Below are positions 33,134 to 34,883 of a DNA stretch of 64,000 bases, one piece after another. Each line of letters starts with the position of its first letter. The first letter of the stretch is position 1. This stretch comes from Shigella phage JK23. The stretch lies in sequence record MK962752; one strand, given 5' to 3'. The position numbers and the translations under genes were made by a program. The notes under the pieces are model-generated. The model was not told where the DNA came from. It made no database searches and worked only from the letters and a program-made list of their open reading frames with translations.

Positions 33134-33466
33134 TTATTTTACTACTTTCCAATGCTGCATGTCAAGTTTACCAACTTTTTTCATCTTCTCAATTAAGCGT
33201 TCGGCACGTTGGCGAGCTGTAACATAATACCATTCACCTAATTCATTTTGTTCAATTTTTCCAACGATTACTGTATTCAATTCATAAATCCAACCAGTAA
33301 AGAAATTATGAACTTGAATTGTAAAGGTGAAATCTGTTCCCATACCTTCTGTTGTTTCTACTTCAATAATATCACCTTCAACTGCCATTAAGAACCACAT
33401 AGTTTCATCATATTTACCATTGAAGCATTTAGTTTTAACTGCAGCGTTCAGATTAATCGTTTTCAT
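33134..33466 (-). CDS. 30.8: hypothetical protein 30.8
   Basis: 110-aa ORF, ATG start. Confidence 0.6.
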   Translation of the reverse strand: MKTINLNAAVKTKCFNGKYDETMWFLMAVEGDIIEVETTEGMGTDFTFTIQVHNFFTGWIYELNTVIVGKIEQNELGEWYYVTARQRAERLIEKMKKVGKLDMQHWKVVK

Positions 33467-33552
33467 TTTATTCTCCTTTGTTTGTGTAAGATAATACTAT
33501 CACAAAGGAACCATACTGTAAACAACTTTATGCAATCTTTGGAAAATAAAAA

Positions 33553-33572
33553 AGGACTCCCGAAGGAGTCCT
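33553..33572 (-). terminator. hairpin after 30.9
   Basis: AGGACTCC-CGAA-GGAGTCCT. Confidence 0.6.
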
Positions 33573-33576
33573 CAAC

Positions 33577-33753
33577 TTATGCTTTCTGCTTACCAAAACG
33601 AGAAGCATCATCTCGAAGAACCGCACGTGCTCGGCGCATGATCTTCTCAACAGTTTGATTGATACGAGAGTTCGACCCACGCTTGTAGCCAGCGCGTTTA
33701 GAATCACCAACTTTCTTTTCAACTGCTTTCTTTGCTTTAGCTTGTTTTGCCAT
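33577..33753 (-). CDS. 30.9: hypothetical basic small protein 30.9
   Basis: ATG 33753 (MAKQAKAKKAVEKK...) gives 58 aa; track ORF extends further upstream. Confidence 0.55.
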   Translation of the reverse strand: MAKQAKAKKAVEKKVGDSKRAGYKRGSNSRINQTVEKIMRRARAVLRDDASRFGKQKA

Positions 33754-34151
33754 TATAAATTCTCTTTTAAATGAAAATGCAGGACTTATTGGCATTGCCT
33801 GCGCAAGCCCTCAAGGGGAACATAGGTTTTTTGATATTTAACGACCAGGATAACCATAAACCCGTCATCATACCTTATAGCTCTTATCTGTTGCACACCG
33901 TTAGCTTAAAGGTTCCGGGTTCGATTTCTCGAGGATAAGATATATACTGATGGATATATAGGCCTTGAGGCGTACTCCCGATTGGCCATCACCTCGGGGT
34001 AGCATGCACTTGCCGCTATAAGAATAACATTCAAGAGGTACACCGTAAAACTGCCGGGGTCTTAAAACTATAATGATTCGCAAATCATTAATCAGACAGT
34101 TCGACGGCTCCTCGTTTTAACTTCACACTAAGGCAGTGAATCTCCAATAAA

Positions 34152-34400
34152 TTACTTCAGTGTTACCACAAAGTGACGAACTGCTTTTCGTGCAGCAGAA
34201 GCCAGAGGCTTAGCATATTTAAGTTCATCTTTTTCCTGAAGCTCAGCAGCTAATGCAGTTTGAGCAGGATTCAGATGTTTGAAATAACGCAGGATTTCAA
34301 GAGCTTCGGCTTCAACATCAATAGATGCGCCATAGTTTTCGTGACCATTATTCCATGCGTTTCGTTGCAGTTCAAGAGCGTGTTGTAATTGTTTAATCAT
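34152..34400 (-). CDS. rIII: rIII lysis-inhibition accessory protein
   Basis: 82-aa ORF (T4 RIII is 82 aa), located between 30.9 and gene 31. Confidence 0.8.
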   Translation of the reverse strand: MIKQLQHALELQRNAWNNGHENYGASIDVEAEALEILRYFKHLNPAQTALAAELQEKDELKYAKPLASAARKAVRHFVVTLK

Positions 34401-34547
34401 TTAAAAATTCTCGTTAGAGATTAAAACTCGGTAGTCACGTTCTTCTGAATTTCATCTTCTTTCGACAGATCTCTCAGTTGTAGACTACCACATAGAATTG
34501 TTCGGTTAACTTATTATTCCGACACCAAATTCATATTATTATTTATA

Positions 34548-34883
34548 TCACTTATAAAGACACGGAATAGCTTTATAGTGACAGGTAACGAATTTTTGTT
34601 TAATTTCTTTTGGCTGCTTAAGACCCAGAGCTACAAAAGGGTGTGGAACGTTTCGAATTTGACCAACTGGAAGAGAAGTCAAATCACCAACTTCACAGAA
34701 ACCTTCAGGAACATCAGGACCGACAGAGTGAACTACACACAGTTCAGGAACTTCACCTTGAACACGTTTACCGATAATAAGTCCTGATTCTGTAACTTCT
34801 TCATCACCGGCTTGTGCAGGTTCAGAAACTAAAATAACATATTCACCGACAGCACGAATTGGTAGCTGTTGTACTTCAGACAT
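34548..34883 (-). CDS. 31: co-chaperonin gp31 (GroES analogue)
   Basis: 111-aa ORF matching T4 gp31 size and position; MotA-box middle promoter upstream. Confidence 0.88.

Follow-up and report, generated by a model that had tools for sequence, protein, structure and literature searches.

Comparative genomics has uncovered a number of orphan RNAs with complex folds, such as GOLLD, ROOL, raiA and OLE, which are about 200-800 nucleotides (nt) in length and are often carried by phages. Compact junction folds are also known from riboswitches: the lysine and the purine riboswitch each contain a kissing interaction between L2 and L3, and SAM-I combines a four-way junction with a pseudoknot. Four-way-junction ribozymes with docking arms exist as well, for example the hairpin and twister-sister ribozymes. 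Here we describe element E, a 151-nt segment located between the genes rIII and 30.9 of Shigella phage JK23 (MK962752), which, judged by comparison of its homologues, is very probably a selected and strand-specific structured RNA element. A stretch of 64,000 nt of this phage was analyzed, which will be referred to as the window; all coordinates are window positions. The window is a segment of a Tequatrovirus (T4-like) genome, and the gap between the two minus-strand genes (33754-34151, 398 bp) shows 100% identity to Escherichia phage vB_EcoM_G4498.

E and described RNA families

E resembles GOLLD, ROOL, raiA and OLE in its multi-helix fold, in tertiary contacts backed by covariation and in near-invariant unpaired strands. 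In contrast to them it measures 151 nt, occurs only in T4-like phages of Enterobacterales and there in a single intergenic region, and has no match in Rfam. With the aptamers that combine a junction and a kissing contact (lysine, purine, SAM-I) it shares adjacent hairpins tied together loop to loop, a site in an mRNA leader and a similar size, and its large conserved internal loop could provide the bend needed for the kissing of helices P3 and P4, as in junction aptamers. The 6-bp P3-P4 helix of E corresponds to the kissing interaction of the lysine riboswitch, a likeness in architecture only, but E contains a four-way and a three-way junction and not the five-way junction of that riboswitch, and the lysine riboswitch model RF00168 gave no match. 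E further differs from riboswitches by its variable distance and order relative to the start site, by the lack of a conserved platform and by a downstream gene that gives no clue to a ligand.

Like E, the RNAs rnaC and rnaD of T4 (species 1 and 2) are small RNAs of the T4 group (119-139 nt, annotated as misc_RNA). Unlike E, they are located in the tRNA cluster, and T4, which possesses both, does not carry E (no place in the BLAST search). A relationship was rejected, the covariance model of E scoring at most 3.9 bits over the tRNA/rnaC/rnaD region of T4 with filters off. With tRNA, E has in common a four-way junction with a terminal closing stem and the character of a GC-rich RNA in an AT-rich phage. 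Nevertheless, tRNA identity was rejected because of the linker-less junction, the wrong arm lengths, the interaction of adjacent arms and the antisense orientation of the T-loop motif. ARAGORN detected no tRNA or tmRNA gene in the 64 kb, and the T-loop consensus GTTCRANNC was not found on the transcribed strand. A first-pass annotation, made from the letters of the window alone, had suggested a structured RNA other than a canonical tRNA, which is supported by the covariation described below.

Searching the 64 kb with the 4227 models of Rfam 15 at gathering thresholds yielded no match in the gap. When E-values up to 10 (E ≤ 10) were admitted on 951 nt, nothing overlapped the element and no tRNA or tmRNA model matched, and on 171 nt the only match was an 11-nt chance match in the 3′ flank (box C/D snoRNA sR7, E = 7.1). 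The only notable match, a sub-threshold one to Atu_C8 (31 bits), is explained by the UUCG terminator following 30.9. Two apparent mimics of ribosomal RNA (rRNA) were rejected as well: the local alignment score of GGGAGUAC-GCCUCAAGG against helix 27 of 16S rRNA was reached by 17 of 300 shuffles, and that of GAACCUUUA against 23S rRNA by 39 of 300. E could be assigned to none of the named families tested, and we rate it as a new family of conserved structured noncoding phage RNA.

A 15-mer of the E core was not found in literature text, and the searchable literature yielded no description of E; a large 2023 survey of 10,006 viral structured-RNA candidates (PMC10690425) could contain it unnamed. 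No viruses of bacteria have been studied more intensively than the T-even phages, yet E was overlooked, probably since it is missing from T4, T2 and RB32, which are among the classic laboratory strains checked.

Fold and strand of E

The covariance model R1, built from 32 distinct copies of E, matched the window exclusively at 33871-34027 on the minus strand (184 bits, E = 1e-42). The alignment of these copies resulted in an RNAalifold consensus of 43 nested pairs in seven helices, in which P1 closes a four-way junction without linker nucleotides and the fourth arm, P5, holds a three-way junction. The parts of the element are as follows:

33874-34024, minus strand: core of element E, 151 nt, structured RNA
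33872-34026, minus strand: E with its immediate flanks, about 155 nt; 'GA' instead in T4 (alignment with T4, RB32, G50 and VR25)
34015-34018, minus strand: 5′ strand of P1, pairs with 33878-33881 and closes E; three of four pairs changed on both sides (AU/UA/CG/GC)
33878-33881, minus strand: 3′ strand of P1, partner of 34015-34018
33961-34014, minus strand: P2-P3 arm, in which a conserved internal loop separates P2 from the long helix P3
34012-34014 (GGC) with 33961-33963 (GCC), minus strand: P2, invariant
33992-34003 with 33970-33985, minus strand: P3, 13 pairs, 7 compensated
33986-33991, minus strand: apical loop of P3, 5′ half of the kissing loop; UGAUGG here, CGAUGG in most copies
33941-33960, minus strand: P4 hairpin (UAUAUAU...GUAUAUA), 7 pairs, 3 compensated
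33948-33953, minus strand: loop of P4, 3′ half of the kissing loop; CCAUCA here, CCAUCG in most copies
33882-33940, minus strand: P5 domain with P5, P6, P7 and the joining strand J7/5; three-way junction
33934-33940 (UCUUAUC) with 33882-33888 (GAUAAGA), minus strand: P5, 3 of 7 pairs compensated
33921-33932, minus strand: P6 tetraloop hairpin, 3 of 4 pairs compensated
33916-33920 with 33895-33900, minus strand: P7, 1 of 5 pairs compensated; conserved 15-nt loop
33889-33894, minus strand: J7/5 strand GCAACA, invariant

Standard pairs were present in 99.1% of the 1374 cells formed by the 43 pairs and 32 copies, and two-sided changes were found in 20 of the 43 nested pairs compared to 7.7 ± 1.6 in shuffled alignments. 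For the nested fold, the observed values on all five measures were reached by none of 500 shuffles, and sliding the partners by 1-3 columns reduced pairing to 26-42%. E clearly shows compensation beyond both shuffled and slid controls, which is the mark of a conserved structured noncoding RNA. The structured-RNA idea had earlier been made to depend on conservation or covariation among relatives, and both were found.

The sequence of P1 varies freely among the copies, and in this phage the stem is extended to CUUAUAGC/GCUAUAAG. P3 occurs as CCCGA/UCGGG, CUCUA/UAGAG and CGGAU/AUCCG, and P4 as TATATA/TATATA, TATACA/TGTATA, TATTCA/TGAATA and TACACA/TGTGTA. Two of the motifs picked out from the letters alone proved to be genuine helices with compensatory changes, the TATATA palindrome (at 33941 and 33955) being P4 and the 7-bp stem TCTTATC/GATAAGA (at 33882 and 33934, enclosing 45 nt) being P5. 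The internal loop between P2 and P3 (AAGUGCAU / CUCAAG) is large and nearly invariant, and the loop of P6 reads GAAA in 21 copies, UAAA in 5 and GUAA in 3. An additional pairing of J2/3 (UGCAUG) with J7/5 (GUGCA) was rejected by eye, as the few substitutions present do not compensate.

A mutual-information scan flagged the non-nested column pairs 40-84 and 41-83, which can be extended to a 6-bp loop-loop helix between the apical loop of P3 and the loop of P4. All 192 cells of this kissing helix are paired (192/192), and three of its six pairs covary, changing from C-G to U-A in 8 copies, from G-C to A-U or U-A in 4 and from G-C to A-U in 2. The two loops read CUAUGG/CCAUAG in Muldoon, CAAUGA/UCAUUG in Cronus and UGAUGG/CCAUCA in this window. 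The observed pair count was reached in 10 of 500 shuffles, and slid controls were mostly far lower.

The alignment contains 60 G·U cells, and pairing amounts to 99.3% on the gene (minus) strand compared to 95.4% on the opposite strand; moreover, the U·G pair closing P4 is retained in 30 of the 32 copies. This bias and the closing pair indicate that the RNA of E has the orientation of rIII and 30.9. A motif described earlier as T-loop-like, GGTTCGATT, is indeed present at 33918 on the plus strand. As the structure is on the minus strand, the motif is merely antisense and no T-loop: on the RNA strand it reads AAUCGAACC, which represents the 3′ strand of P6 and the first part of P7.

The same data bear on a function at the level of DNA, for example as a replication origin or as a recombination or packaging signal, or in small open reading frames (ORFs), which we consider highly improbable. 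Palindromic stems would form in single-stranded DNA too, several records annotate 2-3 ORFs in the region, and one labels it 'ori type 2 repeat'. However, the G·U pairs fit one strand only, and the tetraloop hairpin and the U·G closing pair are strand-specific. A protein-coding gene was rejected, since all three sense frames are interrupted by stops in several homologues. The homologues also differ by indels of 1, 2 and 7 nt, whose lengths are at no single site divisible by three. Where GenBank records show ORFs, these begin in the preceding module U, which other genera do not possess. MK327939, MZ234027, OL362041 and others carry 2-3 'hypothetical protein' ORFs inside or across E, which are apparent artefacts, and recognition of E corrects such database entries, in which hypothetical proteins have been placed inside an RNA.

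The longest ORFs in the gap comprise 60 amino acids (aa) from a TTG (33901-34083, minus strand) and 55 aa on the plus strand, followed by 45, 36 and 34 aa. All short frames named in the first-pass annotation (a 60-codon TTG frame and frames of 34-55 aa) were recovered in the ORF list, and its description of roughly 400 bp without a convincing ORF was borne out, none staying open across the homologues. The GC content amounts to 41.7% over the gap as a whole, 44.3% over 33781-34080 and 60.0% over 33961-34020 compared to 36.3% for the whole window, which reproduces the raised values given before (44% with a 60% peak). E itself has 46.4%, corresponding to the 96.7th percentile of 151-nt windows, a raised but not extreme value.

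Distribution, conservation and modular setting of E

BLAST detected E in 407 phage records at 408 places, with a single match per record except for one; each genome carries one copy, always in the rIII-30.9 intergenic region. RIII was found in 1111 phage records, so that E is present in about one third of the rIII-bearing records and absent from 63%. Sorted by host name, 161 of 162 Klebsiella phages and 131 of 561 Escherichia phages contain E, and Acinetobacter does not appear among the host names listed for the matches, though 69 Acinetobacter phages carry rIII. Model scores were bimodal, with 163-190 bits for full-length copies, less than 9 for other rIII-bearing loci, at most 17 for decoy bacterial loci and nothing in between. 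Divergent copies were not detected in the other rIII loci, including those of the large T4-like phages of Aeromonas and Vibrio type.

The 20-mer core GCTAACGGTGNGCAACAGAT had no match among the genomes of 185,579 species of bacteria and archaea (one genome per species), BLAST with E against 5,426 complete E. coli genomes was negative, and a looser anchor pattern in bacteria resulted in chance matches only (best model score 17 bits). A host or prophage origin of E was rejected, as these searches were empty or at chance level. Matches in metagenomes and IMG/VR were T4-like contigs throughout, chance matches aside; the metagenome match L096 was rejected as a copy of E since it is a chance match within coding sequence.

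In seven genus comparisons, E showed identities of 100, 99, 94, 92, 85, 84 and 80%, the corresponding values for rIII being 84, 83, 74, 73, 74, 73 and 70%. E was the best-conserved segment in every one of them (flanking gp31 62-81%, 30.9 72-88%) and evolves approximately 3-4 times more slowly than the flanking genes across the more distant genera. The broadly parallel gradient of E and rIII fits old vertical inheritance with strong purifying selection and repeated loss. E of this phage is 100% identical to that of a JS98-like phage whose rIII is 84% identical, which, together with gain or loss of E against identical T4 flanks, argues that recombination also moves the element.

In T4, rIII and 30.9 are 244 bp apart, the flanks are 99-100% identical to the window and exactly E is missing. 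RB32 retains only the 3′ part of about 115 nt before 30.9, and G50 retains part of the 5′ block. In Klebsiella and Enterobacter T4-like phages, the match to the gap is limited to E (91-96% identity), which again is located between rIII and 30.9. These sequence comparisons show E to be an optional cassette that is gained or lost as a whole unit. VR25 (KP007361; locus L102, about 920-975) contains an unrelated 53-nt insert, carrying another GGUUAUC motif, at the exact site of E between modules U and M1, and the U/M1 junction looks like a recombination hotspot. The neighbours of E in the gap are:

34028-34151, minus strand: module U, an irregular long hairpin of about 125 nt directly after the rIII stop (predicted fold)
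about 33837-33872, minus strand: M1 hairpin in the constant 5′ leader of 30.9; stem with the conserved loop UUxUxGGUUAUC, with AUGAUG on its 5′ side and GUUAAA on its 3′ side
33808-33818, minus strand: H hairpin (CCCCUUGAGGG), followed by CUUGCG; sequence block invariant in five genera
33779-33802, minus strand: M3, a variable hairpin; like H, in the constant leader just 5′ of the ribosome-binding site of 30.9

The order of the modules is U-E-M1-H-M3 in T-evens, M1-E-H-M3 in Klebsiella phages and E-hairpin-M1-H-M3 in Erwinia phage Cronus. In its sequence organization, the entire stretch from rIII to 30.9 is a series of shuffled RNA modules and not a single gene of 398 bp; only E is both large and discrete. 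These modules bear on the question of how regulatory regions are assembled and exchanged by T4-like phages. M1 is present in all genera examined, 3′ of E in T-evens and 5′ of E in Klebsiella phages, and contains 2 covarying pairs. The stems of H and M3 occur by eye in the compensating variants CCUCUUAGAGG and GCCUUCGAGGC. Module U is optional as well: T4 and VR25 possess it, G50 has a partial deletion and RB32 does not carry it; its variation is too small for covariation testing. It carries two GGAG motifs, which are possible RegB sites, and an AT-rich hairpin (AATGATT/AATCATT, 34072-34089). This hairpin had been counted as an 8-bp feature of the putative RNA gene and is present, but belongs to module U and is located outside E.

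The patchy presence of E and its clean gain or loss as a unit against flanks of 99-100% identity might suggest a selfish or neutral cassette, which is spread by recombination among co-infecting T4-like phages and does not benefit the phage. The identity of E in the JS98-like phage with its dissimilar rIII points to such recombinational spread, and VR25 has received a different insert at the same site. Nevertheless, we regard this explanation as improbable. A neutral passenger would not be expected to keep 99% pairing through some 20 compensated positions together with a kissing helix that covaries, nor to evolve some 3-4 times more slowly than the flanking genes. Furthermore, E is a single-copy element at a constant site and near-universal in Klebsiella phages (161/162), and neither target-site duplications nor an associated endonuclease or transposase were found at the E loci examined.

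Transcription and possible roles of E

Pattern scans revealed no promoters of the sigma-70, late or MotA type and no terminator inside the gap. The genes and signals surrounding it are:

about 34941, minus strand: middle promoter match (MotA box/-10) upstream of gene 31
34548-34883, minus strand: gene 31 (ORF list, T4 annotation)
34540-34547, minus strand: late promoter consensus TATAAATA, a perfect T4-type box between gene 31 and rIII
34152-34400, minus strand: rIII, located upstream in the transcription unit; lysis inhibition accessory protein by PHROG 1457 (ORF list, T4 annotation)
33577-33753, minus strand: 30.9, downstream gene encoding a very basic protein of 58 aa
33599-33615, minus strand: weaker 5-bp terminator match inside the 30.9 coding sequence
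33552-33573, minus strand: intrinsic terminator with UUCG tetraloop after 30.9, the only strong match downstream of rIII
33134-33466, minus strand: 30.8 (ORF list, T4 annotation)

As promoters and terminators were not detected within the gap, the scans place E in the rIII-30.9 transcript. Expression of T4 rIII from early, middle and late promoters has been reported (PMC9409239), and E is presumably transcribed at all stages of infection, embedded in an rIII-30.9 mRNA of about 1 kb.

We suggest that E would be transcribed within this mRNA from promoters upstream of rIII, the transcript ending at the terminator after 30.9, and that it would fold by itself into a compact tertiary structure. The near-invariant loops and junctions may then form a surface or pocket binding a protein or a small ligand, E representing an accessory RNA module that is possibly processed out of the mRNA. 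Taken as a whole, the proposal of a structured RNA domain that acts as an autonomous partner-binding module in the rIII-30.9 transcript appears, by a small margin, probable. The component that E works as such a module rather than by one of the rival mechanisms is put forward tentatively and falls slightly short of probable. The closing stem of its own, the variable neighbours and distances and the unchanged 30.9 in phages lacking E argue against a classic riboswitch and favour an autonomous module.

Several points weigh against this proposal. The single-sequence fold energy is no better than that of shuffles (z = -1.4 sense, -1.0 antisense), so that the structured-RNA idea cannot be confirmed from this sequence alone and its support is comparative, not thermodynamic. 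The copies are mostly 92-100% identical, most of the covariation comes from about seven lineages, and the shuffles ignore relatedness; with this modest diversity, part of the covariation counts reflects shared ancestry. Nevertheless, the pair-count measures are robust and the slid controls decisive despite the limited diversity. P2 and most of P7 are invariant, so that covariation neither supports nor refutes these helices, and the loop of P6 is not strictly GNRA, with UAAA in five copies, which weakens a tetraloop-receptor model. T4 and many relatives do without E, and any function of the element is therefore dispensable in the laboratory. Finally, we infer a binding function from sequence, and E is always found upstream of 30.9 in the same transcript, where a role in cis on 30.9 or rIII is possible.

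Such a role would be that of a cis-regulatory leader or riboswitch, in which E senses a metabolite or a protein, perhaps gp30.9, and tunes the 30.9 or rIII message. Besides the constant position upstream of 30.9 without an intervening terminator, the multi-helix junction with kissing adjacent hairpins is aptamer-like. M1, H and M3 are structured too and by eye may sequester the ribosome-binding site of 30.9. The product of 30.9 is small and very basic, with an invariant SKRAxYK...SN.R motif, and is confined to T4-like phages; its AlphaFold model predicts a disordered basic N-terminus and one helix (residues 29-53, mean pLDDT 67), which would be compatible with RNA binding and makes gp30.9 a candidate binder of its own leader. 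It has no Pfam, PDB or functional PHROG match, and the model is too simple for a fold search. Against regulation in cis, a generic riboswitch platform with P1 overlap and terminator or ribosome-binding-site control was not recognized: P1 and both flanks differ between the genera, and there is no terminator before 30.9. E is 95-115 nt or more away from the start codon with hairpins in between and is found on either side of M1, and no riboswitch family of Rfam matched. Moreover, the 63% of phages without E retain both 30.9 and the constant leader unaltered, the 30.9 of T4 being 100% identical. Altogether, we consider a cis-regulatory leader rather unlikely.

A self-cleaving ribozyme or an RNase processing signal, separating the rIII and 30.9 parts of the message or releasing a stable E, would suit the position between two cistrons. 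Near-invariant junction strands, internal loops and a tertiary contact are typical of catalytic cores, and the docking arms of known four-way-junction ribozymes provide a precedent. However, none of the ribozyme families in Rfam 15 matched the 171-nt stretch at E ≤ 10, no hammerhead, hairpin or twister core was recognizable by eye, and both genes are expressed by phages lacking E as well. We regard catalysis or processing as decidedly improbable as the role of E.

Within the proposal of an autonomous binding module, strong constraint combined with a patchy, accessory distribution is, as a conjecture, the pattern expected of host-interaction functions. E might even represent a new class of functional phage RNA, of which it would be the first member: a compact aptamer-like or catalytic domain acting beyond its own mRNA, for instance as a decoy or sponge for a host or phage protein or a signalling nucleotide, and conferring a host-specific advantage. 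This is unlikely on present evidence but, if true, would explain why a patchy 151-nt module is nearly invariant across genera. T4, with flanks of 99-100% identity and without E, offers natural isogenic controls, and function can be tested by means of the 155-nt cassette.

Some further observations concern the leader and the coding region of 30.9. The start of 30.9 may be sequestered by a hairpin covering its ribosome-binding site, as known for other T4 genes. By eye, AUUUUC within 33754-33778 (minus strand) could pair with GAGAAU over the Shine-Dalgarno region, and a pairing of UCUCC with GGAAGA would be possible in Klebsiella phages. M3 measures 24 nt here; in Karam-, Moon- and Klebsiella phages its counterpart is a domain of 57 nt (GGGAGC...GCUCCC) that contains GAAA loops. 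The label 'glycogen branching enzyme', which 30.9 bears in several records and in one UniRef entry, is an apparent annotation artefact.

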